The notes beneath the pieces are model-generated. The model had not been told where the DNA came from. It saw nothing but the letters and a program-made list of their open reading frames with translations, and ran no database searches. From NCBI GenBank assembly GCA_016793565.1, contig JAEUMA010000569.1, positions 1 through 32,756 on the forward strand: a DNA stretch of 32,756 nt. Reading direction: 5' to 3'. Source of the stretch: Rhizobiaceae bacterium. GTDB taxonomy: Bacteria > Pseudomonadota > Alphaproteobacteria > Rhizobiales > Rhizobiaceae. This document shows, in pieces, positions 4,031-31,936 of the stretch (position 1 is the first letter of the stretch; every line of letters starts with the position of its first letter). Made by a program: the position numbers and the translations under genes.

Positions 4031-5458
4031 TTAGCCGTGCGCGACCATGACGTGGCGGACGGCCGTGTAGTCCTCAAGCGCGTATAGCGACATGTCCTTG
4101 CCGTAGCCCGACTGCTTCAGGCCGCCATGCGGCATCTCGTTGGTCAGCATGAAGTGCGTGTTGATCCAGGTGCAGCCATATTGCAGCCGTGCCGCCGTGG
4201 CCATGGCGCGGGATACGTCTCTGGTCCAGACCGACGAGGCGAGGCCGTAGTCGCTATCGTTGGCCCAGGCGACGGCGTCGTCGACATTCGAGAATCGCGT
4301 GACGGACACGACCGGCCCGAAGACCTCCCGGCGGACGATCTCGTCCTGCTGGAGGGCGCCGGCCACCACGGTCGGCTGGTAGTAGAAGCCCTTGCCGTCG
4401 CCCGGCTTGCCGCCGGTGGTGATCTCGATGTGCTTCAGTTCCGAGGCGCGCTCCACGAAGGACGCGACACGGTCGCGTTGGCGCCGGGAAATCAGCGGGC
4501 CGATCTCGTTGTCGGTGTCGTCGGCCTTGTCGTAACGAATGGTCGCAACGGCGGAGGTGAGGTCTGCGACCAGCCTGTCGTAGATCTTGTCGCCGGCGTA
4601 GATCCGGCAGGCGGCGGTGCAATCCTGGCCGGCATTGTAGTAGCCGAAAGCGCGTAGCCCGTTCACCACTGCATCGAGATCGGCGTCGTCGAAGACGATG
4701 ACGGGTGCCTTGCCGCCCAGTTCCAGATGCGTGCGCTTGACGGTCTTGGCGGCCGCCTGCAGCACCTTCTTGCCGGTGGCGACGTCGCCGGTGATGGAGA
4801 TCATGTTGACCTTGGGGTGGTTGATCAGTGTGTTGCCCACCGTCTCGCCGCGGCCGAGCACTAAGTTGACCACGCCTTCCGGCAGTACATCGGCGAGAAT
4901 CTTCGCCAGTTTCAGCGCCGTCAGCGGCGTCTGCTCGGAGGGTTTGAACACGACCGTGTTGCCGCCGCCGATGGCAGGCGCCAGCTTCCAGGCCATCATC
5001 ATCAGGGGATAGTTCCAGGGCGCGATCGAAGCGACGACGCCGATCGGGTCACGCCGGATCATCGATGTGTGGCCGGGCAAGTATTCGCCCGCGACCTGGC
5101 CGGGCATGGTGCGAACCGCGCCGGCGAAGAAGCGGTAGCAGTCGACGATCGCCGGAATCTCGTCGTTGAGCACGGCGTTGATCGGCTTGCCGCAGTTCTG
5201 GGCCTCCAGCGCCGCGAACTCGGCGGCTTCCGCTTCGATGCGCTCGGCGATCTTCAGAAGATAGACTGAACGTTGCGCCGGTGTCGTGCGTGACCAGCTC
5301 GCATACGCCGTTTCGGCGGCTGCGACGGCTGCGTCGATCTGCGCCGGGCTGGCCTCCGGCAGGTTGAGGATCGTGGCGCCCGTCCTGGGGTTCAGGACGG
5401 TCTCCTCGGCCTCCGTCCCTGCCTCGAACTTCGAGCCGATCAGCATCGCGGTGTTCAT
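4031..5458 (-). CDS. patD: Gamma-aminobutyraldehyde dehydrogenase (NAD-dependent aldehyde dehydrogenase)
   Basis: 475 aa with a GGAGGA SD. Long blocks are identical to E. coli PatD/YdcW as I remember it: [74 protein letters not shown]. Confidence 0.85.
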
Positions 5459-10681: not shown

Positions 10682-11602
10682 CTAACCGGCGGGCCGGAAA
10701 GGCTTGGCCAGCGACGCCGGGAAATGCAGCGCCAGCATCTGCCGGTTCTGCGAGATGATCACCAGCACGACGATGGTGGCGAGATAGGGTAGGGCGGAGA
10801 GCAGTTCGGACGGCACCGCGAGCCCAATCGCCTGCCCCTGCAGCTGCAAAATCGTCATGCCGCCGAACAGCCACGCGCCGAGCAGTACGCGCTGAGGCCG
10901 CCAGGTGGCGAAGACGACGAGCGCCAGCGCGATCCAACCCTTGCCAGCGGTCATGTTCTCGACCCAGAGCGGCGTGTATGCGACCGAGAGATAGGCTCCG
11001 CCGAGGCCTGCCATCAGGCCGCCGAACAGCACGGCGAGATACCGGATTTTTATCACAGGATAGCCGATGGCGTGCGCCGTTTGCGGCGACTCGCCGATGG
11101 TGCGCAGCACCAGGCCCGACTTGGTGCGGTACAGGAACCAGGAGATGGCCACGAACATCGCCAGCGCGAGATACACCATCGGGTCGAAGCGAAAGAGCAT
11201 CGGTCCGACCAGCGGGATGTCCGACAGGCCCGGAATATGGATGCGGTCGAGGGCGTCGATCGGCGCGCTGCCGAAGCCGCGGCCCAGGAAAGCCGAGACG
11301 CCCGAGCCGAAGATGGCGAGCGCCAGTCCTGCCGCATACTGGTTGGTCAGGAAGGTCAGCGCCAGCACGCCGAAAAGAAGCGATGTGGCGGCACCCGCGA
11401 GGCCGCCAGCCAGTATCGCCACCGGCATGGAATAGCCGGCGACGACTGCGCCGAAGGCGATGGCCGCGCCCATCAGCATCATGCCTTCGATGCCGAGGTT
11501 GAGCACGCCGGATTTCTCCACCACCAGCTCGCCCAAGGCGGCAAAGACCAGCGGCGTTGCGGCGATGACTGTGCCGGCGAAGATGGCGACGAACAGATCC
11601 AT
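10682..11602 (-). CDS. ABC transporter permease, BMP/nucleoside (CUT2-like) family, second permease
   Basis: Only the last 306 aa of track ORF 10682..12181 are membrane-like (MDLFVAIFAGTVIAATPLVFAALGELVVEKSGVLNLGIEGMM...). The ATG at 11602 overlaps the upstream stop by 1 nt. Confidence 0.85.
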   Translation of the reverse strand: MDLFVAIFAGTVIAATPLVFAALGELVVEKSGVLNLGIEGMMLMGAAIAFGAVVAGYSMPVAILAGGLAGAATSLLFGVLALTFLTNQYAAGLALAIFGSGVSAFLGRGFGSAPIDALDRIHIPGLSDIPLVGPMLFRFDPMVYLALAMFVAISWFLYRTKSGLVLRTIGESPQTAHAIGYPVIKIRYLAVLFGGLMAGLGGAYLSVAYTPLWVENMTAGKGWIALALVVFATWRPQRVLLGAWLFGGMTILQLQGQAIGLAVPSELLSALPYLATIVVLVIISQNRQMLALHFPASLAKPFRPAG

Positions 11603-12663
11603 CAATGGCCCCCGGACCGGCGCAGCCGGTAGAAGATGAAGAAGTCGCAGGCAAGCAGGAAGAAGAGCAGGATGCCCTGGAAGATGCGCGTCAGCGCCGA
11701 GGGCAGGCCAAGCGTCATCTGCACCTGTTCGCCGCCGAGGAAGAGCAGCGACATCAGCAGTCCGCCGAGCACGATGCCGAAGGCGTTCAGCCGGCCGATG
11801 AAGGCCACGATGATGGCCGCGAAGCCGTAGCCGGGCGAGATCTGCGGCGAGAGCTGGCCGAGGGGGCCGGCAGCCTCGGCCACTCCGGCAAAACCGGCCG
11901 CCGCACCGCCGGCAAGCAGGCCGATCCAGATCGCGGACGATTCGCGAAATCCGGCGTAGCGGGCGGCGAGCGGTGCGGCGCCCGAGACCGACATCTTGTA
12001 GCCGAGGAAGGAGCGGTCGGTGAACAGCCACATGGCGACCACCGCGATGACCGTGGCGACGATCGAGGTGTTGAGCCGGTAGGCGGGATCGAAATAGGAG
12101 AACATCGCGGCGGGAGGCAGCAGCGCTGTCTGCGGATAGTTGAAGCCGGCCGGATCGCGCCACGGACCGTGCACGAGCCACGAGAGCAACAGCGTCGCCA
12201 CATAGGTCAGCATCAGCGTGACCAGCACCTCGTTGGTGTTCATGCGCGCGCGCAGGAAAGCCGGAACCGCCGCCCAGGCCATTCCGGCGACGATGCCGGC
12301 CAGGATCATCAGCGGCAGGAGCAACGCGTCAGGCGCCGGCCAGTAGAGGCCGACGCCGGTCGCCGCGATCGCGCCGGCGATCAGCTGGCCTTCCGCGCCA
12401 ATGTTCCAAACGTTGCCGCGGAAACCGACGGCGAGCCCGCAGCCGATCAGGATCAGCGGCGAGGCCTTGAGCAGCCACTCGGAAAGCCCATTGGCCGAAG
12501 ACAGCGGCTGGATGAAGAAGGCGTGCAGCGCGGCCAGCGGAGCGTAGCCGAGCGCCGCGAAGAAGGCGGAGCCCACCGCGAGCGTCAGAAGCGTGGCGAT
12601 GATCGGTGCGGCGACGCGCATCGCCGCCGAGGGCTGGGGCCGCTGCTCAATGGTGAAGTGCAC
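11602..12663 (-). CDS. ABC transporter permease, BMP/nucleoside family, first permease
   Basis: 353-aa multi-TM protein. GTG start at 12663 has an AAGGGGAG SD and overlaps the ATPase 3' end by 17 nt. The NIGAEGQ motif is shared with 29946..31007. Confidence 0.85.
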   Translation of the reverse strand: MHFTIEQRPQPSAAMRVAAPIIATLLTLAVGSAFFAALGYAPLAALHAFFIQPLSSANGLSEWLLKASPLILIGCGLAVGFRGNVWNIGAEGQLIAGAIAATGVGLYWPAPDALLLPLMILAGIVAGMAWAAVPAFLRARMNTNEVLVTLMLTYVATLLLSWLVHGPWRDPAGFNYPQTALLPPAAMFSYFDPAYRLNTSIVATVIAVVAMWLFTDRSFLGYKMSVSGAAPLAARYAGFRESSAIWIGLLAGGAAAGFAGVAEAAGPLGQLSPQISPGYGFAAIIVAFIGRLNAFGIVLGGLLMSLLFLGGEQVQMTLGLPSALTRIFQGILLFFLLACDFFIFYRLRRSGGH

Positions 12664-14185
12664 CGGCGCTCCCCTTGTGCGTGCTGCTTTCGGTTCCCCC
12701 AGTCATCAGCAGGCCGATCTCCTCGCGATCGGTCTTCCTGCGGTCGAGCGAGGATGAAAGCCGTCCCTGGCAGATGACTAGGAGGCGGTCGCAAATCTCG
12801 AAGAGTTCGTCCAATTCCTCGGACACAACGATAATGGCGGCGCCGGCCCGGCTGAGGTCTACCAGCGTCTGCCGAAGAAAGGCGGATGCGCCGACATCGA
12901 CGCCCCAGGTCGGCTGCGAGACCAAAAGGACCTTCGGAGCCAGTTCCATCTCGCGACCGACGATGAATTTCTGCAGGTTGCCACCCGAAAGGCTCTGCGC
13001 GGCGGCGCCCGAGCCATTCGCCTTGACCTTGAATCGCGAAATGACCCTGTCGGCGAAGGCGGCCGCGCGACCCCGGTCGACCATGCCGCCCCGCACGAGC
13101 CCCGCGCGGTGCGCGGTCAGCACCGCATTGTCGCGCAGCGAATGGCCGGGCACGGCCCCGCGGCCCAGGCGCTCCTCCGGGACGAAAGCAAGGCCTCGGC
13201 GGCGGCGCTCGCCGGCGTCGAGGCGGCCTACAGGCTGGCCCTCGAGCCGAATCGCCTCGGCGTGGCGGTGGCGCAGTTCGCCCGAAAGATGGGCGATCAG
13301 CTCGGCCTGCCCGTTGCCGGAAACGCCGGCGATGCCGACGATCTCACCTCCGTGGACGGAGAGCGAGACGTCGCGCAAGGCAGTGCCGAAGGCGTGCGGC
13401 GGGTCCGCGGACAGGTTTTTCACTTCCAGAATCGGGGCGGGGGAGGGGCGGGCTGGCTCGATATGCATTTCCGGCAGGTTCGCGCCGACCATCATCCGCG
13501 CGAGTTCCAGCGAGGTGGTTTTGCGGGGTTCGGCGGTGCCGGTAACACGGCCGCCGCGCAGCACCGTGGCGCTGTCGCAAAGCGCCTGAACCTCGTCCAA
13601 CTTGTGGCTGATGTAGACGATCGAGCAGCCTTCCGCGGAAAGCTGGCGCAGCGTCTCGAACAGCTTTTCCACCGCCTGCGGCGTCAGAACCGAGGTCGGC
13701 TCGTCGAGGATCAGCAGTTTCGGCCGCTGCAACAGGCAGCGCACGATCTCGACGCGCTGGCGCTCGCCGACCGACAGATCGTGGACGATGCGGCGCGGGT
13801 CGACCGGCATTCCGTAGCGCTCGGAAAGTTCCACCACCTGGCGGGAAAGCGCGTCGAGGTCGAACGGCATACGCGCCGAGAGCGCGATGTTCTCGACCAC
13901 GGAGACGGATTCGAACAGGGCGAAATGCTGGTAGACCATCTCGATGCCCAGCGCGCGCGAGGTCGCCGGATCGTGCCGCTCGATGCGATTGCCGTCGCAG
14001 ACGATTTCGCCGGAATCGGCCTGCACCGCGCCGTAGATGATCTTCATCAGCGTCGACTTGCCGGCGCCGTTCTCACCCAGCACGGCGTGGATTTCGCCGG
14101 GCGCGATCGCCATCGAGATGTCGTCATTGGCGACGACGCCAGGATAGCGCTTCGAGATATTGCGCAGTTCGAGGCGGGGGGTCAT
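12647..14185 (-). CDS. ABC transporter ATP-binding protein with duplicated ATPase domains
   Basis: 512 aa. Walker A GENGAGKST, a second degenerate P-loop GVSGNGQ, LSGGNLQK, and two Walker B-like segments. Confidence 0.9.
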   Translation of the reverse strand: MTPRLELRNISKRYPGVVANDDISMAIAPGEIHAVLGENGAGKSTLMKIIYGAVQADSGEIVCDGNRIERHDPATSRALGIEMVYQHFALFESVSVVENIALSARMPFDLDALSRQVVELSERYGMPVDPRRIVHDLSVGERQRVEIVRCLLQRPKLLILDEPTSVLTPQAVEKLFETLRQLSAEGCSIVYISHKLDEVQALCDSATVLRGGRVTGTAEPRKTTSLELARMMVGANLPEMHIEPARPSPAPILEVKNLSADPPHAFGTALRDVSLSVHGGEIVGIAGVSGNGQAELIAHLSGELRHRHAEAIRLEGQPVGRLDAGERRRRGLAFVPEERLGRGAVPGHSLRDNAVLTAHRAGLVRGGMVDRGRAAAFADRVISRFKVKANGSGAAAQSLSGGNLQKFIVGREMELAPKVLLVSQPTWGVDVGASAFLRQTLVDLSRAGAAIIVVSEELDELFEICDRLLVICQGRLSSSLDRRKTDREEIGLLMTGGTESSTHKGSAGALHH

Positions 14186-14229
14186 GCGGCTATGGCTCAG
14201 GTCTCGATTGCTATGCAGCGGATACGCGC

Positions 14230-14270
14230 CACCCTGTCTCCGCTTTGCTAGGCGAAGCGGAGACAGGGTG
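14230..14270 (-). other. Perfect 16-bp-stem hairpin between the binding-protein gene and the ATPase gene
   Basis: 14230-14245 (CACCCTGTCTCCGCTT) is the exact reverse complement of 14255-14270 (AAGCGGAGACAGGGTG). No U tract follows on the minus strand. Confidence 0.6.
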
Positions 14271-14303
14271 AGGGCTGACCTTGTCGTCTCCCTCCCGCCG
14301 GCG

Positions 14304-15398
14304 CTAGGCCAGCTTGCCGATCATGCCGGCCACGAACCAGTTCATGCCGCGGATATCCGGATCGGCCAGAACCGATCCGGCCGCCACCTTGACGTTGCCG
14401 TCCTGGTCCTTCAGTTCGCCGGCATAGGGATGGACCTTGCCACTGCCGATATCGGTCTCGAGCTGCTTGAGCTTGGCCACAACGTCAGCCGGGATCTGCT
14501 CGTTGTAGGGCGCCATCTTGACGATGCCGGCTGCCAGCCCGTCCCAGCGAACCTCCGGTTTCCAGGTACCGGCGGCCACCGCCTTAGCCGGCTCGACATA
14601 GTCGCGCGACCAGTCCAGCGTGAAGGCGGTGAGCTGCTTGCCGGAGCCGAAAGCCGCCATGTCGCTGGCGTAGCCGATCGACCACGCGCCGCCTTCGCCG
14701 GCGGTCTGCACGCCGGTCGCCGTGTCGGTCATGGAGCAGATGACGTCGCAGCCCTGCGACAGCAGCGTGTTGGCCGCCTCCTTCTCCTTGCCGGGATCGA
14801 ACCAGGAATTGAGGAACACGACGTTGCAAGTGGTGTCCGGCCGGACGCTCTGGGCGCCGAGCAGAAGCGCGTTGGCAGGGCCGACGATGTCGGGAATCGG
14901 GAAGCCACCGATGAAGCCGATCTTGCCGGACTTGGTCATGTGCCCTGCCGCGGCGCCAGCCACGAAGGTTCCTTCGTAGTACTTCGCCTCGAAGGTGCCG
15001 AGATTGGCCAGGTGGACGATGCCCGAACAGTGTTCGAAGGCGATGTCGGGAAAGCGCGGCGCGACCTTCTGCATTGGCGTTCCGTGCGAGAAGCTGGTAC
15101 CGAAGATCAGCTTGTTGCCGCTGCTGGCGAGCTGCGTGAAGACCCGCTCGGCATCCTGCGGCATGAAAATGTTGTCGATGATGGTCATCTCGACCTTGTC
15201 ACCGAACGCATCCTTGATCGCCTGCGCGCCAAGGCTGTGCTGCTTGGTCCAGCCGATGTCGGCGACGGGCGAGACATATACGACGCCCACCTTCAGCACC
15301 TCCTGCGCATGCGCCAGGCCTGCAAAGCCGCCGGTGGCGGCAGCGGCGCCAAGCGCGCCGGAGTATTTCAGGAAATCGCGTCTGGTCGTGTCGGTCAT
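14304..15398 (-). CDS. BMP-family ABC transporter substrate-binding protein with twin-arginine signal
   Basis: MTDTTRRDFLKYSGALGAAAATGGFAGLAHA is a Tat-type signal. The rest resembles the BMP/PnrA fold family: GFIGGFPIPDIVG, FLNSWFDPGKEKEAA. Confidence 0.85.
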   Translation of the reverse strand: MTDTTRRDFLKYSGALGAAAATGGFAGLAHAQEVLKVGVVYVSPVADIGWTKQHSLGAQAIKDAFGDKVEMTIIDNIFMPQDAERVFTQLASSGNKLIFGTSFSHGTPMQKVAPRFPDIAFEHCSGIVHLANLGTFEAKYYEGTFVAGAAAGHMTKSGKIGFIGGFPIPDIVGPANALLLGAQSVRPDTTCNVVFLNSWFDPGKEKEAANTLLSQGCDVICSMTDTATGVQTAGEGGAWSIGYASDMAAFGSGKQLTAFTLDWSRDYVEPAKAVAAGTWKPEVRWDGLAAGIVKMAPYNEQIPADVVAKLKQLETDIGSGKVHPYAGELKDQDGNVKVAAGSVLADPDIRGMNWFVAGMIGKLA

Positions 15399-15410
15399 TG
15401 TTCCAAACCT

Positions 15411-16229
15411 CTAATGGTTGCCTTGGATTTCAGGCCCGTTCGCAAGCGCGGGCTCTTTTCTCTGTTTGTGGTCGTGGCGATGCGGCGCCGCGGTACTGCC
15501 ACGCGGCTGAGCCGTGGAATTCGTGGCGCCGTCCCGGGCGTCGGCAGGCGGCTCGGCGAGATAGGGCGCCAGCGCCTCGCGCGGCGTCATCTCCGGAAAC
15601 ACCTGCCGGTCCATGATGTAGCCTCGGACGACGGCGCGGTGATGCGTGTCGATCAGTTCCAGCGCCTTCTTGAGCCGGCCTTTCTCCAGCAGGTCGATCA
15701 GGCGTGCGTGGTCGTCCAAAAGGTTGCAGTAGTCAAAGTCGGCTGTGATCAGGGAGCGCAACAACGTCGTGCGCCGCGTTAGCTGCGCGTGAATCTCCTG
15801 CATCACCTTGTTGCGGGAGAGCCGCACGAAGACCGTATGAAACTCCTGCCCCAGGACATCGGCCAGTGCGTCGTTGTCCGCGGCTACCGCCTGGCGCTGG
15901 CGCTCCACATGCTGGCGCAGTTCCGCCCAGCCCGCAGGCCCGAGCCTGTCGGAGAGCTGCGCGGCCACGCCCTGTTCCACCAACGTCAGGGCGTCGTAGA
16001 TCTCGATCGCCTCCTGCATCCCCGGCCTGGCGACGAAGGCGCCGCGGTTGCGCTCGATCTGCGCCAGCCCATGGTCGGCCAGGCGAATGAGCGCCTGGCG
16101 GATGACGATGCGGCTGACGCCGAAAATCTCAGAAAGCTCGCGTTCGCCCAGCTTGCAGCCAGGCACCAGTCGATGATCGATGATGGCGCGCGTCAGCACG
16201 TCTGCGATCGCCTGGGAACGGTTGCTCAT
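15411..16229 (-). CDS. GntR-family (FadR/FCD-type) transcriptional regulator
   Basis: wHTH GERELSEIFGVSRIVIRQALIRLADHGLAQIERNRGAFV. I prefer the ATG at 16229 (MSNRSQAIADVL...) with GGAAGA upstream. The track start at 16328 has no SD. The stop lies 12 nt before the BMP binding-protein start. Confidence 0.8.
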   Translation of the reverse strand: MSNRSQAIADVLTRAIIDHRLVPGCKLGERELSEIFGVSRIVIRQALIRLADHGLAQIERNRGAFVARPGMQEAIEIYDALTLVEQGVAAQLSDRLGPAGWAELRQHVERQRQAVAADNDALADVLGQEFHTVFVRLSRNKVMQEIHAQLTRRTTLLRSLITADFDYCNLLDDHARLIDLLEKGRLKKALELIDTHHRAVVRGYIMDRQVFPEMTPREALAPYLAEPPADARDGATNSTAQPRGSTAAPHRHDHKQRKEPALANGPEIQGNH

Positions 16230-22077: not shown

Positions 22078-22650
22078 ATGGCCAACGTCTCGATCCACCC
22101 CGCCGTCGACGGCGGGGTGAAGAAGGGCAGCGCAAGCTTCGCCGGCGGCACGCTGGTTTGCCTTTGCGCCAGCAAACCGGTGAAGGTCAAGGTCAAGGGC
22201 AACGTCGCCCACGACCATGCCTGCGGCTGCACCAAATGCTGGAAGCCGGAGGGGGCGATCTTCTCCGTGGTAGCGGTGGCGGCGACCGGCGATGTGACGG
22301 TGACCGAGAACGGCGACAAGCTGAAAGTGGTCGATCCGAGCGCTCTGATCCAGCGTTACGCCTGCACCGGCTGCGGCGTGCACATGCACGGGCCGGTCGA
22401 GCGCGACCATGCCTTCAAGGGCTTGACCTTCGTGCATCCGGAACGTTTCCAGGAATCCGGCTGGGCCGAGCCCGGCTTCGCGGCTTTCGTCTCCTCGGTG
22501 ATCGAGTCCGGCGTCGACCCGAGCCGCATGGACGGCATCCGTGCACGGCTGAAGGAACTGGGGCTGGAGCCTTATGACTGCCTCAACCCGCCGTTGATGG
22601 ATTATCTGGCGACCTTCGCGGCCAAAAAGTCCGGCGCGCTCAAGGCCTGA
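22078..22650 (+). CDS. gfa: S-(hydroxymethyl)glutathione synthase (glutathione-dependent formaldehyde-activating enzyme)
   Basis: 190 aa with an AAGGGAGGAA SD. Matches Paracoccus Gfa as remembered: [56 protein letters not shown]. Confidence 0.9.
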
Positions 22651-23527
22651 CCGTCGCCTTGTCGGGCGCTCCGTCCGACGCCGTCATTCCGTAGGCGGTG
22701 TCGGCGGCGCCTTCTGCAACGTCGCTCGGCACGCGATAACCCTTGTTGGCGCGCACCTCGCGTGGCGACATGCCGAACTGCTGCGCAATCTGCCGCGAGA
22801 AGTGGAACGGGTTCTTGTAGCCGCACTGATAGGCGATCTCGGAAAGCGTCAGGCCGGTCTGGAGAAGCAGCGTATGCCCGCGTGCGGCGCGGCGCTGCCA
22901 GAGGTAGCGCACCGGGGTGATGCCCAGATGCCGCCGGAAAGCCGAGACGAGATGCTGCGGCGTCACCCCGACAAGCCCGGCCAGCCGCTCGACTGTGATC
23001 TCCTTGTCGAAATTCTCCTCGATGTATAGGCGTGCGCGCAGCACCGAGCGCGGAATGAGCTTCTCCTGTTCGGAGAGCTGGGCGTCGTGGAAATAGGCGA
23101 GAAAGATCGACTGGCCGAGCGCGTTGCGCAGCGCATTGAGGTTGGAAGACGAGCCCGAGCCGAGTTCGACGCCCAGCCTCTGCAACGTCTCCACGCGGGC
23201 GGAAAGTGGCACCTGCGCCGGCAGCTCGGCGAGGCGAACGTTCGAACTCGTCACCGATGTTTCGTTCGAGGCTCCACCTTCGCACCAGCTCGCCCAGGTG
23301 CGCCTACCCTCAACGTAGTCGATCAGAAGATTTCGTTCGTTGCGGAAAAAGCCGCAGCTGCGACGCTCGATGATGGTTTCCACCCCGTCGCAGACGACGC
23401 GCGCGCGGCCTTCGTGGATGATCAGCAGCGTCAGGTAGCTGTTCTGCAGGGGGCCGTAGCGCCCACCATTGGGATAGATCGCCTCCCCGAAGGCGAAACC
23501 GCGCGCGGGGTCAAGCAGTGTGTGCAT
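22640..23527 (-). CDS. AraC-family transcriptional regulator
   Basis: C-terminal double HTH ([33 protein letters not shown]..., [32 protein letters not shown]) with an N-terminal cupin-like sensor region. Divergent from the Rieske gene at 23714. Confidence 0.9.
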
Positions 23528-23713
23528 CGCACAATCCGACGCCTGATCGGCGCCGCCCCTTGGAAAGGCCTCAGCCTAGCGCCATGCGATCTTAATTCAA
23601 GATATGCATTGAACCGATTGAGGCATTCCGTCGCCCGCCTGGTTGGACCACATTTCGCAGCGGGCCGGCATCACGCCGTCTAAGCCAGCATCGACCTCGT
23701 CGGGAGCCAGCGC

Positions 23714-24769
23714 GTGTTTTTGCCAACCGATCATTCCAAGGTCCGCACCGAACTGCCGCGCGGCTGCACCTTCGATGAACGGGACTGGCATATCCTGGCA
23801 GGCTTCTGGCATCCCGTCGCCTTCGCGCATGACATCGCCGACAGCCCGGTGAGGGCGCGTCTGCTGGACGTCGACCTGGTCATCTACCGCACGGCGCAAG
23901 GGATCACGGTTGCCCGTGACCTCTGCCCGCATCGCGGAACCCGCATCAGCGCCGGCTGGATAAAGGACGACAGCCTCGTCTGTCCCATGCACGGGCTGGA
24001 ATTCGGGCATGGCGGTACCTGCACAAAGATCCCGTCCGTTGCCAACTCACAAGGCCGCATACCGCCCAAGCTCCGGCTGCAGACCTGTCTGTCGCAACTG
24101 CGCTACGGAATCGTTTGGGCTTGCCTCAAGCCGGAGCCGATCTGGCAGCTTCCGGAGTGGGAGGGCATCGGCAACCCGGATCTGCGCAATGTCTACGTGC
24201 CGAACGGCACCTGGTATGCCTCGGCCAGCCGTCATGTCGAGAACTTCAACGACGTGGCGCACTTCCCCTTCGTGCACACGAAGAGCTTCGGCGGCAGCCC
24301 AGCGGAGCCCATACCGCCCTACGACGTCGAGCACACCGATTTCGGCCTTCGCTTCGCCTTCCCCTACCACGAGGGCTTCAACCGGTTCCCCGACGGCGTG
24401 CCGGGCACGGAGCGCGATGTCGTCTACACCTACGAACTGACCTTTCCGTTCTCGACGATCATCAAGATCGCTCCGGTGGGCTCCGACTACGTCAACTATT
24501 TCGCGGACACGGTGTGCCCCGTCTCGGCGCGAGAGACGCGCATCTTCCAGGTGATGACCGACACCACCGGCGATCCGGATGACGAGCACTGGATCAAGGA
24601 TGCCCTCCTCATCAACGACGAGGACAAGCCGATGGTGGAGGAGCAGCGGCCGGAGGAACTGCCGCTCGACCTGACCGAAGAAATCCATATCCCGTCCGAT
24701 CGGATGTCGCTCGAATATCGCCGCGCTCTTGCGAAGAAATTCGGCCTCGGCGCTCCAATTTCAAGCTAG
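23714..24769 (+). CDS. Rieske non-heme iron oxygenase alpha subunit with intact Rieske domain (VanA/NdmA-class monooxygenase/demethylase type)
   Basis: GTG start with a GGGAG SD 7 nt upstream. Rieske motif CPHRG-x14-CPMHG (23924-23992). Iron motif ENFNDVAHFPFVH. NDEDKPMVEEQ block. Confidence 0.85.
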   Translation: MFLPTDHSKVRTELPRGCTFDERDWHILAGFWHPVAFAHDIADSPVRARLLDVDLVIYRTAQGITVARDLCPHRGTRISAGWIKDDSLVCPMHGLEFGHGGTCTKIPSVANSQGRIPPKLRLQTCLSQLRYGIVWACLKPEPIWQLPEWEGIGNPDLRNVYVPNGTWYASASRHVENFNDVAHFPFVHTKSFGGSPAEPIPPYDVEHTDFGLRFAFPYHEGFNRFPDGVPGTERDVVYTYELTFPFSTIIKIAPVGSDYVNYFADTVCPVSARETRIFQVMTDTTGDPDDEHWIKDALLINDEDKPMVEEQRPEELPLDLTEEIHIPSDRMSLEYRRALAKKFGLGAPISS

Positions 24770-24790
24770 CCGCAACTGGGGATATTTGAG

Positions 24791-26059
24791 ATGTCGCTGA
24801 TGCCGACCGGTCTGAACCAGATGGCACCCGCGCCCGGTGCGCCGGCCGGCGCATTTTGGGGCACGCCATTCCATTCCGCTACCGCAGCGCACAACAAAAC
24901 GACCTGGTGGTACGCCTGGGACAAATACGTCATTCCCGACGCCTACACGGACATGCCCTCCGAGTTGCGCGCCATCCGCGGCGCCGCGGCGCTCATCGAC
25001 ATGTCTCCGTTGCCGAAGATGGAAATCGCCGGACCGGAGGCGCACCGCCTCGTCAACCGTCTGATGACCCGTGACCTGTCGGCCATCGCGGTCGGGCAGG
25101 CGATGTATGCGCCTTGGTGCAACGAGCACGGCCTGCTGATCGGCGACGGCTTGGTTTTCCGCAGCGAGGAGCAGCGCTTCATCATTTCAGGCGAGGCCAG
25201 CCATGCGTGGTTCGCGGCCAATGCCACCGGGCTCGACGTCCAAGTCCGCGACGTGTCGGACGAGTTCGGCGTGCTTTCGCTGCAAGGGCCACGCGCCTTC
25301 GACGTGCTGGCGGCGGCCACCGGGCGCGACTGGTCGGCGCTGAAGTTCTCGGCCATGGCCAGGGCGCGGATCGCCGATGTGGATCTGTTCGTTGCGCGGC
25401 AGGGGTTCACCGGCGAACGCGGCTTCGAACTATGGGTGCCGCGCGACGGCGGTGCGGCGGTGTGGAACGTGGTCTACGAGGCCGGCGAGAAGTTCGGCAT
25501 CAGGCCGGCAGGCGAGTATGCAGTGGACGTCGCGCGCGTCGAGGCCGGGTTAATCCTGGTCTCCGCCGACTATACCGGCGCCGGTCCCGATCAGCGTTGC
25601 GCCCACGTCCAGGTCGCTGCCGACCTGACTGTCACCCCCTATCAGGCAGGGCTGGGCAAATTCGTCGATCTCGGCCGCGATTTCGTCGGCCGCGACGCTC
25701 TGGCACGCGAGCAGGGCGGCCCGCAAAACGGCCGCCGCCTGGTCGGGCTGCGCTACGACGCCGCCGAGATCCTTCGGCTAGCCGCCGCCAACAGCGCGCT
25801 GGGTACGGCACTATCGCGCGTCTACTGGGGTTCCATGACGGCATGGAAGGACGGGGCTGTCGTCGGCCGGGCGTCCAGCCTGTGCTTCAGCCCGACGCTG
25901 CGCCGCGCCATCAGTTTCGGGTTCCTGCCGGGCGATCTGGCTGAGCCGGGCGCATCGGTCGACGTGGAGATGAAGGACGATAGCGGGACTGGCATCGGTC
26001 TGGTGTGCGCGGAGGTGACGCGTCTGCCCTTCGTGGAGCTCAAGCGATCGAGCGGATGA
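24791..26059 (+). CDS. GcvT-family aminomethyltransferase-like, folate-binding protein
   Basis: 422 aa. Family blocks ELRAIRGAAALIDMS, FGVLSLQGPRA, ARQGFTGERGFELW, VDVARVEAGL. Confidence 0.8.
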   Translation: MSLMPTGLNQMAPAPGAPAGAFWGTPFHSATAAHNKTTWWYAWDKYVIPDAYTDMPSELRAIRGAAALIDMSPLPKMEIAGPEAHRLVNRLMTRDLSAIAVGQAMYAPWCNEHGLLIGDGLVFRSEEQRFIISGEASHAWFAANATGLDVQVRDVSDEFGVLSLQGPRAFDVLAAATGRDWSALKFSAMARARIADVDLFVARQGFTGERGFELWVPRDGGAAVWNVVYEAGEKFGIRPAGEYAVDVARVEAGLILVSADYTGAGPDQRCAHVQVAADLTVTPYQAGLGKFVDLGRDFVGRDALAREQGGPQNGRRLVGLRYDAAEILRLAAANSALGTALSRVYWGSMTAWKDGAVVGRASSLCFSPTLRRAISFGFLPGDLAEPGASVDVEMKDDSGTGIGLVCAEVTRLPFVELKRSSG

Positions 26060-27060
26060 ACGCGCATAGTCCTTCCTCGGCGGGCACCGGGACGGCCGCG
26101 GAAGGGACATCCCAGCGCATGAGCTTGCGTCTTTCGGGCAAGACGGAATGCGCCGAGGGCATCGCCGCCTTCGAACTGGTCGATCCGTTGGGGCGCGATC
26201 TGCCAGTTTTCATGGCGGGCGCGCATCTCGACGTTCATCTGCCGAACGGGATGGTGCGCCAGTATTCGCTGCGCAATGCGCCCGCCGAACGCCACCGTTA
26301 CTGCCTCGGCGTGCTGCGCGAGCCGTATGGCCGCGGCGGCTCGGCCGCCATGCACGGCCTGGCCGCCGGCGATACGGTCGAGGTCGGCATGCCGCGCAAC
26401 AATTTTGTCCTGGAAGAGAACGCGCCGGTCTCGCTCCTCGTCGCCGGCGGCATCGGCGTGACGCCGCTCCTAGCCATGGCGCATCGGCTGACCGAACTAG
26501 GCCGCGACTTCACCTTCCACTACGCCGCGCGCAGCGCGGCGCGCATGGCGTTTCGCGAAGAGATCGAAGCCTCGGCCTTTGCGCATCGGGCACATTTCCA
26601 TCTCGACGACGGACCGGGAGACCAGCGTCTCGACCTTGAGGCGATCGCCTCCGCCGGGCGGCCCGGGGCCAGGCTCTATGTCTGCGGGCCGTCCGGCTTC
26701 ATGGACGCGGTGATCGACGCCGCACGTCGCGGTTGGCCGGAGGAGGCGATCCGGCGTGAATATTTTGCCGCCGCGCCGATCACGCGACGGGACGCAGATG
26801 ATGCCTTCCGCGTACGGCTGGCGCTGAGCGGGCGCAGCCTGGAGGTGCCGGCCGGCTGCACCATCGTCGAGGCGCTGGCGGCGATCGGCCTTGAGGTGCC
26901 GACCTCGTGCGAACAGGGCATCTGCGGCACTTGCGTGACGAAGGTGCTGTCGGGCACGCCGGATCATCGCGACCTGGTGCTGACCGATCGCGAGCGCGCC
27001 GATCGCATGACGCTCTGCTGTTCGCGCGCATTGAGCGACGAAATCGTGCTGGAGCTTTGA
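26056..27060 (+). CDS. PDR/VanB-family oxidoreductase (FMN, NAD, plant-type [2Fe-2S])
   Basis: The ATG at 26056 overlaps the GcvT-like stop (ATGA). A later ATG (MSLRLSG...) is possible. RQYSL, GGIGVTPLLAMA, YVCGPSGFM and CEQGICGTC...C motifs. Confidence 0.85.
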   Translation: MNAHSPSSAGTGTAAEGTSQRMSLRLSGKTECAEGIAAFELVDPLGRDLPVFMAGAHLDVHLPNGMVRQYSLRNAPAERHRYCLGVLREPYGRGGSAAMHGLAAGDTVEVGMPRNNFVLEENAPVSLLVAGGIGVTPLLAMAHRLTELGRDFTFHYAARSAARMAFREEIEASAFAHRAHFHLDDGPGDQRLDLEAIASAGRPGARLYVCGPSGFMDAVIDAARRGWPEEAIRREYFAAAPITRRDADDAFRVRLALSGRSLEVPAGCTIVEALAAIGLEVPTSCEQGICGTCVTKVLSGTPDHRDLVLTDRERADRMTLCCSRALSDEIVLEL

Positions 27061-27320
27061 TAGGATGGCGCTCGTGAGCATCGGAGCACGATGTTGGATA
27101 TGAGGCGCCTTCGAAGCCATGCAATGCAACCTGGCTCTCCCGTCGCTCCAGGCCGTGGGCTGGACGACACGGTCAAGCGCGCCCCGCGGGAGGCTCGGCG
27201 CGCCGATATGGATCGTCTCATCGCGGCAGGGGAGGCGGCTGGCTGAAAGGCGGCGGGAATAGCAGGCAAAACGACACAAGACGGGAAAACCCGATTGGAA
27301 CCAGAGGGAAAGGCACTTCA

Positions 27321-28358
27321 ATGCTATCGAAACTAATCTCGAAAGCCGCGGCCTTCGCCGCGGCCCTGCTGCTGGCCATGCTGGCGGCTTCACTGCCGGC
27401 GAAGGCGCAGAAGCCCGACCGGCTCAGCGTCGCCGTCATCCTGTCGGCGGGCATCGAAAACGGCTGGGACGGCACCTTCATCAAGGCGCTGGAACGGGCC
27501 AAGGAAGCGGCCCCCCACGGCCTCAACATCTCGTGGAAATATACGGAGCCGCTTTGGGGCGACGATGCGGGCGATGCCATGCGGCTCTTTGCCGAAAGCG
27601 GCGAATACGACATCATCTGGGCGCACAGCACCTATTCCGACCAGGTGAAGAAGCTCAAGGAGGAGTTTCCGGAAATCCTGTTCGTCGTGGTCGGCTCAGG
27701 CAACGAAGGCCTCGGCGGCAACCAGTATTGGGTCTACAAGCGGGTTCACGAGCCGGCCTACGTACTCGGCACGCTCGCCGGCAAGATGACCAAGACCGGC
27801 GTCGTCGGTGCGGTGGGCACCTATCCGGCGGACGACGTGAACGATGAGATCAACGCCTTCTTCGCCGGCGCCAAATCGGTGCGTCCGGACCTCAAGCACT
27901 CCGTGGCGTTCATCGAATCCTGGTACGATCCGGCAAAGGCCGCCGAGTACACCAAGGCGCAGATCGCCACCGGCGCCGATTTCATCCTCCAGCTGGCCAA
28001 CAATTTCCAGCCCTGCGAAGAAGCCAAGATCTACTGCTTCGGCAATTTCTCGGATCAGAACTCCTTCGCGCCGAAGACCGTGCTGAGCAGCACCGAGGCA
28101 GTGTGGGATCCGGACCTCAACTGGATCATCAACGAGTGGTACGCACACAAGACCGAGGGCAAGGCCTATGACGGGAACAAGGAAAAGCACTGGTTCCCGA
28201 TGGCCGAAGGCGGCTCCGCAGTGGCGCCCTTCCACGACCTGGAATCGGCCGTACCGGAGAATGTTCGCGCCGAGGTGAAGGCCGTGGAGGGCAAGATCAT
28301 GGACGGCAGCCTGGAAGTTCCGCTGGACGTCTCCGAGCCCAAGACGACGGCGAAGTGA
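27321..28358 (+). CDS. BMP-family ABC transporter substrate-binding protein with Sec signal
   Basis: MLSKLISKAAAFAAALLLAMLAASLPAKA signal peptide. BMP-like blocks GVVGAVGTYPADDVNDEINAFFAGAK and IESWYDPAKAAE. AGAGGGAAAGG SD region. Confidence 0.85.
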   Translation: MLSKLISKAAAFAAALLLAMLAASLPAKAQKPDRLSVAVILSAGIENGWDGTFIKALERAKEAAPHGLNISWKYTEPLWGDDAGDAMRLFAESGEYDIIWAHSTYSDQVKKLKEEFPEILFVVVGSGNEGLGGNQYWVYKRVHEPAYVLGTLAGKMTKTGVVGAVGTYPADDVNDEINAFFAGAKSVRPDLKHSVAFIESWYDPAKAAEYTKAQIATGADFILQLANNFQPCEEAKIYCFGNFSDQNSFAPKTVLSSTEAVWDPDLNWIINEWYAHKTEGKAYDGNKEKHWFPMAEGGSAVAPFHDLESAVPENVRAEVKAVEGKIMDGSLEVPLDVSEPKTTAK

Positions 28359-28437: not shown

Positions 28438-29945
<1,508 letters not shown>

Positions 29946-29949
<4 letters not shown>

Positions 29950-31007
29950 TCACCTTCGAGCGCCGCGTCGAACCGAACCTCGGATGGACCGTGGCCGCCT
30001 TTGCGCTCGCTGTCCTGGCGTGCCTGCTGGCGACTGCGCTTCTGCTGGCCACGACCGGCGCCGACATAGGCCAGGCCTTTTCGGCGCTGTGGAAGGGCGC
30101 GGCCGGTTCACGGCGCGCCTTGACCTCCACGCTGGTCAACGCAACGCCGCTCATTCTCACCGGCCTTGCGACCGTGGTGGCCTTTCGCGCGCAGATCTGG
30201 AGCATCGGGCAGGAGGGCCAGGTGTTTGCGGGCGCGATGGGCGGCTATCTCGGCGCGACGCTGCTGATGGGTCTGCCGCCGGTCCTGTTCTTTCCGGCCG
30301 TGCTCGCCTTCGGCGTCGCGGCCGGAGCGCTGCTGGGCGGCCTCTGCGGCTGGCTGCGCACGCGCTTCGGCGTGAACGAGATCATCTCTACCGTGATGAC
30401 CAATTACCTGATCGCCTATTTGATGTCGTGGATGCTATCCGGAGGGCCGTGGACCGAGGTGGGCACCGTCGCCTACCACCAGTCGCCGGAACTGCCGGCG
30501 GACGCCGTGCTGCCGATGCTGGCGGGAATCCCGCGGCTGCACGTCGGCGTGGTGCTGCCCTTCGTGGCGGCGCTGTTCTGTTCCGTGCTGCTCGCGCGCA
30601 TGCCGCTCGGCTACGAGATCCGCGGGCTCGGCTACAATCCGGAGGCTCTGCGCCACAAGGGCGTGGATATCGCGCGAACGGTGGTCGTGGTGATGATGAT
30701 TTCCGGCGGGCTGGCCGCGCTTGCCGGCGCCATCGAGTTGTTCGGCGTCAGCCACCGCCTGCGCGCCGACAACTTCGCCGGCCTCGGCTACTCGGGCATC
30801 ATCGTCGGCATGATCGGCGGCCTCAGCCCGCTGGGCACCGTGGTCGCCGGGCTGTTCTTCGGCGGGCTGGCCAGTGGTGCGGTTTCCATGCGCGTGCTTT
30901 CCGATACGCCGGCGGCACTGGTGCCGGCGATTCAGGGGCTGACGCTCTTCTTCTTTCTGTGCGCCGGCGTGCTGGCGCGCTACCGGATCGTCAGGAAGGC
31001 GCCATGA
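29946..31007 (+). CDS. ABC transporter permease, BMP/nucleoside family, first permease
   Basis: 353-aa multi-TM protein. ATGA overlap with the ATPase stop. The SIGQEGQ motif parallels NIGAEGQ in 11602..12663. Confidence 0.88.
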
Positions 31008-31936
31008 GCCAGCTGTTCCAGGAAGCGATCCTCATCAGCATCCTCGCTTCCACGCTGAGGATCATGACGCCGCTGCTCTTTTCGGCGATGGGCGAACTGG
31101 TGACCCAGCGCGCCGGCATCTGGAACATGGGTGTGGAAGGCACGATGCTGATGGGCGCCTTCGCGGCCTATATCGGCGTCACGGCCTCGGGCTCACTTTG
31201 GCTTGCCGTCCTGGCCGGCGTATTGGCCGGCGTGCTGATGGGCGTGGTCATCGCCTTCATGACAGCAACCATGCGCGTCGACCATTTCATTGCCGGCCTC
31301 GGCCTGAACCTGCTCGCCTCCGGCCTCACGCTTTACTGGTTCCAGAGCTACATCAAGAGACGCGAGCAGCCGACCTTCTCCGGCTTCCAGAACTGGCCGA
31401 TTCCGGGCCTTGCGGACATCCCCTTCATCGGCGAGGTGCTGTTCTCCCAGCGCCTGCTAACCTACCTCGCCCTGCTCTGCGTTCCGGCCATCTGGTTCCT
31501 GCTTTACCGAACCCGCTACGGGCTGGAGCTGCGCTGCCTCGGCGAGAACCCCAAGGCGCTCGACGTGAAAGGGCTCAGCGTGCCCGCGCGGCAATACGCG
31601 GCCGTCATTTTTGGCAGCGCCATGACCGCGCTGGGCGGAAGCTTTCTCATGCTCGGCTTTTCCGACCGCTTCCTGGCCGATTTCAGCGCTGGGCGTGGCT
31701 GGATCGTGATCGTCGCACTGATCGCAGGAAACTGGGCACCGAAAGGCGTTCTGGTGGCGATCGTCGCCTTCGCTTTCCTGGAAGCGCTGGCCACGCACAT
31801 GCAGGTGCTTGGCGCGCCCGTTCCGCATCAGCTGCTTCTGGCGCTGCCCTATCTGGCGTCGATCGTCATTTTGATGTTCGTTCGCTTCCGCTCCGGCCAG
31901 CCGGCGCGCCTCGGCGTCGCCTATATGCGCGAGTAG
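31004..31936 (+). CDS. ABC transporter permease, BMP/nucleoside family, second permease
   Basis: Membrane-like C-terminal part of track ORF 29984..31936. The ATG at 31004 (MSQLFQEAILISIL...) overlaps the upstream stop (ATGA). The AGIWNMGVEGTML motif parallels SGVLNLGIEGMML in 10682..11602. Confidence 0.88.
   Translation: MSQLFQEAILISILASTLRIMTPLLFSAMGELVTQRAGIWNMGVEGTMLMGAFAAYIGVTASGSLWLAVLAGVLAGVLMGVVIAFMTATMRVDHFIAGLGLNLLASGLTLYWFQSYIKRREQPTFSGFQNWPIPGLADIPFIGEVLFSQRLLTYLALLCVPAIWFLLYRTRYGLELRCLGENPKALDVKGLSVPARQYAAVIFGSAMTALGGSFLMLGFSDRFLADFSAGRGWIVIVALIAGNWAPKGVLVAIVAFAFLEALATHMQVLGAPVPHQLLLALPYLASIVILMFVRFRSGQPARLGVAYMRE

Follow-up and report, generated by a model that had tools for sequence, protein, structure and literature searches.

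Flavin- and zinc-dependent N-demethylases (DMGO, SoxA, Tdm) are known to have a one-carbon (C1) unit captured on folate, by a folate domain that belongs to the demethylase polypeptide itself. For Rieske oxygenases, such capture was not described in the literature we searched. Here we describe a three-gene locus, module B, in which a gene for a stand-alone GcvT-fold protein lies between a Rieske oxygenase gene and a reductase gene. Module B occupies positions 23714–27060 of a 32,756-nucleotide stretch of DNA (the window), which is the whole of contig JAEUMA010000569.1 (C272; 65% G+C) of an alphaproteobacterial metagenome-assembled genome (MAG) of the Rhizobiaceae (GCA_016793565.1; 769 contigs, 4.25 Mb, 93% complete). 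Our proposal, which we hold with about even confidence, is that module B would be an operon under AraC control that serves to remove N-methyl groups oxidatively from an imported methylated purine-like base, with the GcvT-like protein moving the oxygenase-derived C1 unit to tetrahydrofolate (THF).

Among the described systems, the GcvT-like domains of Tdm, DMGO, DMGDH and SoxA collect the C1 unit of oxidative N-demethylation as methylene-THF, and for Tdm a tunnel has been demonstrated experimentally, as has the formation of methylene-THF from formaldehyde by its C-terminal domain (PMC13619132). Stand-alone enzymes of the LigM type form methyl-THF and are linked in an operon to methylenetetrahydrofolate reductase (MTHFR), in the order ligM-metF-ligH (PMC11868366). 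The demethylenases SesA and BrdA are GcvT-fold enzymes that act directly on aromatic substrates (PMC5547118). On the oxygenase side, the closest counterparts are NdmA and NdmB, the N1- and N3-methylxanthine demethylases of Pseudomonas putida CBB5, which work with the reductase NdmD (PDB 6ick, 6icl). The CBB5 cluster, as described, has no GcvT-fold gene; ndmCDE homologues to which no function is assigned occur commonly in Sinorhizobium and Mesorhizobium, and the widespread Ndm homologues outside Pseudomonas have been noted as unexplained since 2013 (PMC4408171).

Module B consists of three co-directional open reading frames on the + strand. The first encodes a Rieske non-haem-iron monooxygenase of the NdmA/NdmB family (P0001, 351 residues, 23714–24769; Rieske and VanA_C domains), the second a GcvT-fold, folate-type stand-alone protein (P0002, 422 residues, 24791–26059; GCV_T and GCV_T_C domains), and the third a class IA, VanB-type reductase resembling phthalate dioxygenase reductase (PDR; 334 residues, 26056–27060). 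The initial annotation had read these frames and gene types from the DNA letters, and domain and structure matches bear it out, including the classical layout of an oxygenase with a PDR/VanB-type reductase and the presence of Rieske and iron motifs. The GcvT-like start follows the oxygenase stop by 21 nt, with GGGGA 9 nt before its ATG. At 26056–26059, an ATGA joins the GcvT-like stop to the likely reductase start in a 4-nt overlap. No terminator-like site was found on the + strand within module B.

P0001 carries the Rieske ligands in C71-P-H73...C90-P-M-H93 and the iron motif E176-N-F-N-D180-V-A-H183-F-P-F-V-H188; C71, H73, C90 and H93, together with the iron motif and D304, are invariant in 42 orthologues. 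Its VanA_C domain is matched with an E value of 9e-21. In the comparison with all solved structures, NdmA (139 bits, E 2e-39) and NdmB (114 bits, 6e-32) lead, SxtT (111 bits) and SxtDIOX come next, DdmC reaches 54 bits and the KshA types lie far lower. By these matches we assign the oxygenase as a new member of the NdmA/B family. The initial annotation had rightly seen a Rieske demethylase and had missed both the likeness to NdmA and NdmB and the purine-type context. About 120 database clusters of about 351 residues share 59–90% identity with P0001, many of them from genomes of the Roseobacter group, Aminobacter, Devosia and marine gammaproteobacteria, and none has a specific name; their labels are generic, for example 'vanillate O-demethylase monooxygenase subunit'.

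Like the CBB5 enzymes, P0001 falls in the 351-residue length class, has the Rieske plus VanA_C architecture and stands beside an NdmCDE-like system and formaldehyde-oxidation genes. In contrast to CBB5, module B has its own plain PDR-type reductase and does not share a Rieske-bearing NdmD, the identity is about 30%, and the cluster is linked to PnrA-type importers, a GcvT-fold protein and, in relatives, an adenosine/adenine-type deaminase (A_deaminase). The substrate of module B is probably a methylated purine-like base, because NdmA and NdmB are the nearest relatives and an NdmCDE-like system, formaldehyde genes and purine-type importers surround the module.

The reductase matches phthalate dioxygenase reductase over its full length (2pia residues 9–321, E 3e-71), and its single chain has the same order of a flavin domain, an NAD domain and a C-terminal plant-type 2Fe-2S domain with Cys-x4-Cys-x2-Cys...Cys (Pfam Fer2 and NAD_binding_1). 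It differs from PDR/VanB by a low-complexity N-terminal extension of about 20 residues, whose position, not its sequence, is conserved among orthologues. The extension is also found on homologous reductases that follow no GcvT-like gene (L003, L004, L008), and these have Leu at the position of the internal Met of the window protein. Since orthologues keep the extension and do not have the internal Met, ATG 26056 is the likely start, and the internal ATG at 26119 was discarded as a candidate. The GTG start at 26005 given by the list of open reading frames is unsupported. The translational coupling of the GcvT-like gene to the reductase gene, read earlier from the ATGA, gains from this choice of start, and we regard the 4-nt overlap as probably real and functional.

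P0002 matches Pfam GCV_T (E 2e-56) and GCV_T_C, and its best PDB matches in both sequence and fold are GcvT entries. Nevertheless, it lies below every curated NCBIfam cut-off. The best of these models are the C-terminal half of trimethylamine N-oxide demethylase (199 bits) and GcvT (191 bits); against the GcvT models it scores 191 bits for a cut-off of 300 (NF001567), 143 for 236 (TIGR00528) and 113 for 459 (NF010093). The DmdA, LigM and DesA family models give 103–121 bits, the LigM/DesA model 108 for a cut-off of 580. A confident AlphaFold (AF2) model built from 57 relatives has a pLDDT of 91.5 and superposes on GcvT with template-modelling (TM) scores of 0.79/0.91. It superposes about as well on DMGDH, DMGO, DmdA and LigM, and in Foldseek the scores to GcvT, LigM, DmdA and DMGO are alike (TM 0.76–0.79), so that the fold does not single out a nearest family.

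The initial annotation had singled out the residues of the folate site beforehand as the point where a folate role could fail; D119, E209, E213 and R249 are present and, together with E251, invariant in the 57 members of the P0002 subfamily. D119 aligns to the catalytic D96 of Thermotoga maritima GcvT (E. coli D97) and E213 to E195 of the T. maritima protein. On the other hand, T. maritima R227, an Arg without exception in the canonical GcvT rows, gives way to V, I or L in the subfamily (position 245 of P0002) and is also replaced in Tdm. The subfamily has invariant residues of its own: W40, W43, D50, M71-S-P73, W109, Q204, E242-Y243, S258, Y261, R343, W346, R360 and F376. After an 'ADY' motif it also carries an insertion of about 20 residues (about 262–282), which GcvT, Tdm, DmdA, SoxA and DMGDH do not have, whereas LigM has one at the same site.

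We placed P0002 in a maximum-likelihood tree of 63 rows, in which the references were DmdA, LigM, Tdm and canonical GcvT genes together with the fused paralogues of the source genome, fetched by family model. A branch with 99% SH-aLRT support splits the P0002 subfamily from DmdA, Tdm, GcvT, SoxA-like and DMGDH-like proteins. Such a placement had been suggested with the first description of the gene; the separation from these five groups stands, and LigM may attach inside the clade, as described below. The subfamily profile scores Tdm C-terminal domains highest (205–226 bits), then DmdA (142–165), LigM (117–141) and GcvT (83–108). We assign P0002, on these sequence comparisons, to a distinct and unnamed GcvT-fold subfamily. 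All 57 aligned members have about 400–470 residues and none is fused to a demethylase, in a search that did not extend to longer proteins. The 13 other GcvT-fold matches in the source genome are at most 36% identical to P0002, and its canonical gcvT lies on C565 (323 bits to NF010093). Across contigs C597, C565 and C474 we also notice a Tdm gene truncated at a contig end and the canonical gcvT split over two contig ends, which indicates that the MAG is heavily fragmented.

P0002 thus shares with Tdm, DMGO, DMGDH and SoxA the GcvT fold and the conserved Asp/Glu residues of the folate site, and with Tdm, which also has the top profile score, the loss of the GcvT-specific Arg. It differs from these C1-capture domains in being a separate polypeptide, in that its partner would be a Rieske oxygenase rather than a zinc or flavin enzyme, and in its insertion and separate clade. 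It is genetically coupled to a presumed formaldehyde-releasing demethylase here and, within 10 kb, in 28 of 54 subfamily loci. The linkage of this subfamily to Rieske N-demethylases is a new variation on folate-coupled demethylation.

We propose that the proteins of module B would act as follows. Electrons from NAD(P)H would travel by way of the flavin and the plant-type 2Fe-2S centre of the PDR-type reductase to the Rieske cluster of the oxygenase, which would hydroxylate an N-methyl group to an N-hydroxymethyl (hemiaminal) intermediate that releases formaldehyde. The co-translated GcvT-fold protein, which might be physically coupled to the oxygenase, would bind THF and convert the C1 unit to 5,10-methylene-THF; it would receive that unit as free formaldehyde or straight from the hemiaminal. 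The carbon of methylene-THF could then be assimilated through serine hydroxymethyltransferase (SHMT) and the serine cycle, with overflow formaldehyde being oxidised by the neighbouring FrmA/Gfa glutathione route.

The gene neighbourhoods of the subfamily are consistent with this scheme. We surveyed 54 genome loci whose GcvT-like protein is at least 39% identical to P0002. A VanA_C-type oxygenase lies within 10 kb in the 28 loci noted above, and an A_deaminase or Bmp/PnrA-type protein is found at 37. In seven loci, Acidimicrobiia included, the GcvT-like gene is directly upstream of an NdmD- or PDR-type reductase gene. The hosts are Alphaproteobacteria (among them soil rhizobia), Gammaproteobacteria (among them marine ones), Acidimicrobiia and sponge symbionts, and the genes belong to Ndm-like or purine clusters. 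Subfamily loci that have no oxygenase nearby are enriched in amidohydrolases, A_deaminase, phosphoribosyltransferases, formate–THF ligase and formyltransferase, and all five genomes with such 'orphan' copies that were checked encode NdmA-family oxygenases elsewhere.

In the loci from a Steroidobacteraceae genome (L006), a marine contig (L007) and a metagenome scaffold (L009), one or two GcvT-like genes accompany NdmA-, NdmC- and NdmD-like, glutathione S-transferase (GST) and adenine/adenosine deaminase genes. SHMT lies 4–5 kb downstream in L019 (Ensifer) and L024 (M. ciceri), and a tblastn search found no MTHFR within 10 kb at 88 loci. The SHMT and serine-cycle neighbours together with the absence of MTHFR nearby fit methylene-THF rather than methyl-THF as the product. 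In L003 (Mesorhizobium sp. CO1-1-11, 11481–15908), we notice that the GcvT-like gene is followed by a 296-residue protein with no Pfam match, a class-V aminotransferase, a 2-hydroxyacid dehydrogenase and SHMT, genes that look like a serine-cycle set for C1 assimilation.

The survey from the oxygenase side covered 80 genome loci with P0001 orthologues (48–82% identity), in which neighbours within 10 kb were counted. NdmC-like genes occur in 46, GST genes in 44, PnrA-type binding proteins in 38 and A_deaminase in 13, and a PDR-type reductase gene is directly downstream of the oxygenase gene in 30. The GcvT-like gene is found in only 11 of the 80, so that the protein is a recurrent but optional accessory, dispensable for the oxygenase family. 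The three genes had been presented as one unit, whose co-occurrence with module A was to be surveyed; no conserved three-gene unit emerged. The order oxygenase, GcvT-like, reductase is confined to the window and two close relatives (L001 and L002), whose gene order is shared and whose GcvT-like and oxygenase proteins are 81% and 90% identical to those of the window. Elsewhere the GcvT-like gene either stands directly upstream of an NdmD-like reductase gene or closes the cluster on its distal side, with an AraC regulator of its own. The latter arrangement is seen in L003 (Mesorhizobium), L004 (Aminobacter) and L008 (Aquamicrobium), where the oxygenase, reductase, A_deaminase and importer genes come first, in this order, and are followed by a divergent AraC gene and, last, the GcvT-like gene. 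In evenly drawn samples, a P0001 orthologue was present in two of 401 genomes of the class and a GcvT-like homologue in one of 151 genomes of the order, counts too sparse for co-occurrence statistics; the system is rare and patchy in distribution.

Several observations weigh against our proposal. The identity of P0001 to NdmA is only about 30%, and the function of all subfamily members is a prediction from sequence. The others concern the GcvT-like protein, and they lend themselves to a different explanation, the main rival, which we consider possible but doubtful: P0002 may work alone and without O2 as a THF-dependent group-transfer enzyme comparable to LigM/DesA/SesA/BrdA. It would take another methyl or methylene group (for example an O-, S- or cationic N-methyl) off the purine-type compound on which the oxygenase acts, or off a related one, and the oxygenase would handle other positions. 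The subfamily and LigM have the insertion after 'ADY' and a G-D-G motif in common, and both are stand-alone GcvT-fold enzymes of catabolic clusters. In the tree, LigM attaches inside the P0002 clade with 87% support. No oxygenase lies within 10 kb in about half of the subfamily loci, which carry A_deaminase, amidohydrolase or phosphoribosyltransferase genes; conversely, a GcvT-like gene is absent within that distance from 69 of the 80 orthologous oxygenase loci. Pairs of GcvT-like paralogues, in tandem or divergent, occur in Ndm-like clusters (L006:8001–10565; L007:6571–9236, a Tara-type contig). Together with these pairs, the many invariant aromatic and charged residues specific to the subfamily, Trp, Tyr and Arg among them, suggest that a particular organic substrate is recognised and do not resemble a generic formaldehyde trap, and direct action on aromatics has been characterised for GcvT-fold enzymes (PMC5547118).

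Against a LigM-like role, the LigM branch is very long (2.72), and a tree that excludes LigM from the clade is 2.85 log-likelihood units worse and is not rejected (approximately unbiased test, p 0.19). LigM is possibly the sister group of the P0002 subfamily, a relation that is not significant. The scores of LigM with the subfamily profile are well under those of Tdm, and P0002 reaches 108 of the 580 bits of the LigM/DesA cut-off. P0002 keeps the Glu of 'TGE' that LigM has lost, and the column of the LigM active-site Tyr is V, I or L in the subfamily (the LigM numbering being inferred). None of the 88 loci resembles ligM-metF-ligH in a linked MTHFR. In addition, the GcvT-like gene has repeatedly become part of oxygenase/reductase operons in which the codons overlap or nearly do so.

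The folate capture proposed here could also take a more specific form. By analogy, the P0002 subfamily might be a stand-alone 'hemiaminal:tetrahydrofolate methylene transferase', which binds the N-hydroxymethyl-purine made by an Ndm-type oxygenase and hands its CH2 directly to THF, with no free formaldehyde. We judge this version unlikely, but direct transfer from the hemiaminal would reconcile the folate-capture and the LigM-like observations, and a hemiaminal substrate would also explain the subfamily-specific residues and the tandem paralogues. Its chemistry parallels that of SesA and BrdA on O-CH2-O acetals. If true, it would be the first folate-coupled C1 capture serving a Rieske oxygenase. 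Once worked out, the P0002 reaction would give a function to many proteins labelled only 'aminomethyltransferase family protein', would show how bacteria assimilate the methyl carbon of methylated nucleobases beyond mere detoxification, and would help to find the natural substrate of the widespread Ndm homologues outside Pseudomonas.

A further explanation would make module B a common VanAB-type (vanillate) aromatic O-demethylase that has no purine link and carries the GcvT-like gene as a passenger. The Pfam name VanA_C, the VanB/PDR-type reductase and the generic database names of the homologues speak for it. We consider it very improbable, given that NdmA and NdmB are the best solved relatives, far ahead of DdmC and others, and that the neighbours at the 80 orthologue loci are NdmC-, NdmD- and NdmE-like genes, PnrA-type importers and A_deaminase, not genes of the protocatechuate pathway. 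That P0002 is instead a housekeeping T protein of glycine cleavage (aminomethyltransferase), here by chance, is suggested by its Pfam domains and best PDB matches and was rejected as next to impossible, since it misses all GcvT cut-offs, has the canonical Arg replaced and falls in a separate clade, no GcvH or GcvP domain was found among the window frames scanned, and the canonical gcvT of the genome lies elsewhere.

Module B lies about 1.06 kb downstream of the split system, module A, which ends at 22650; the initial annotation had put the distance at 1 kb. Module A comprises two Rieske-less VanA_C proteins (both NdmC-like), a 588-residue Rieske-reductase fusion (NdmD-like) and a GST-fold protein (NdmE-like), and next to it stand a class-III alcohol dehydrogenase gene (FrmA-like) and then Gfa. 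A pairing of a glutathione route with a folate route had been read from the two modules. The locus does contain FrmA/Gfa as well as a folate-type protein; the module A GST, in turn, is most likely an NdmE-type structural subunit and not part of a C1 route. That several methyl groups of one substrate are taken off in turn is plausible from the example of NdmA, NdmB and NdmC.

Between the two modules lies the gene of an AraC-family regulator (22640–23527, − strand; HTH_18 and HTH_AraC domains), divergent from module B. The 186-bp intergenic region between them (23528–23713), read directly from the sequence, is a putative control region, in which no match to the sigma-70 consensus was found. An orthologous AraC gene stands at the equal position upstream of the oxygenase gene in L001–L004, L008 and most of the loci L120–L137. 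PnrA/Bmp-type ATP-binding cassette (ABC) importers flank the cluster on both sides. The downstream importer begins with a Bmp/PnrA-type (purine/nucleoside-type) substrate-binding protein (27321–28358, + strand; Pfam Bmp), followed by the ATPase (28438–29949) and two permeases (29946–31007 and 31004–31936). This order of Bmp, ATPase and permeases downstream of the reductase or the deaminase gene is kept in L001–L004, in L008 and in 38 of the 80 loci with P0001 orthologues.

In L001 and L002, a gene for a 347-residue A_deaminase stands between the reductase and Bmp genes, where the window has a spacer of 260 bp (27061–27320). The middle of the spacer (27140–27245, + strand) matches the final ~100 nt of the L001/L002-type gene at about 68% without gaps, and tblastn matches deaminase residues 319–338 at 27160–27219. 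This alignment identifies the stretch as a remnant: the A_deaminase gene of the cluster has been deleted in the source genome, leaving about 100 nt of its 3' end. The only other A_deaminase homologue of the assembly, on contig C104, is 30% identical.

The surveys also yielded several minor observations. In five loci from Acidimicrobiia and 'Aldehydirespirator' MAGs (L010, L011, L015, L044 and L051) and on scaffold L009, the GcvT-like gene is directly upstream of an NdmD-like Rieske-reductase fusion gene and a GST gene, and in L009 the GcvT-like and NdmD-like called genes overlap by 4 nt. L007 has a 2-oxoglutarate-Fe(II) oxygenase gene beside its NdmC-like gene. One oxygenase locus of Primorskyibacter marinus PX7 appears on four scaffolds (L139–L142) with identical scores, probably an assembly duplication or a multi-copy element. 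The 'Spongiisociaceae' genome G557, to which L023 and L040 belong, has ten NdmA-family oxygenase paralogues; nine of them fall within about 140 kb (contig C2, 2.12–2.26 Mb), with at least two GcvT-like genes. At 1–1505 and 4031–5458, in its left part, the window carries a dihydroxyacetone kinase (Dak1 and Dak2 domains) and an aldehyde dehydrogenase; in some organisms such a kinase can take part in assimilating formaldehyde.

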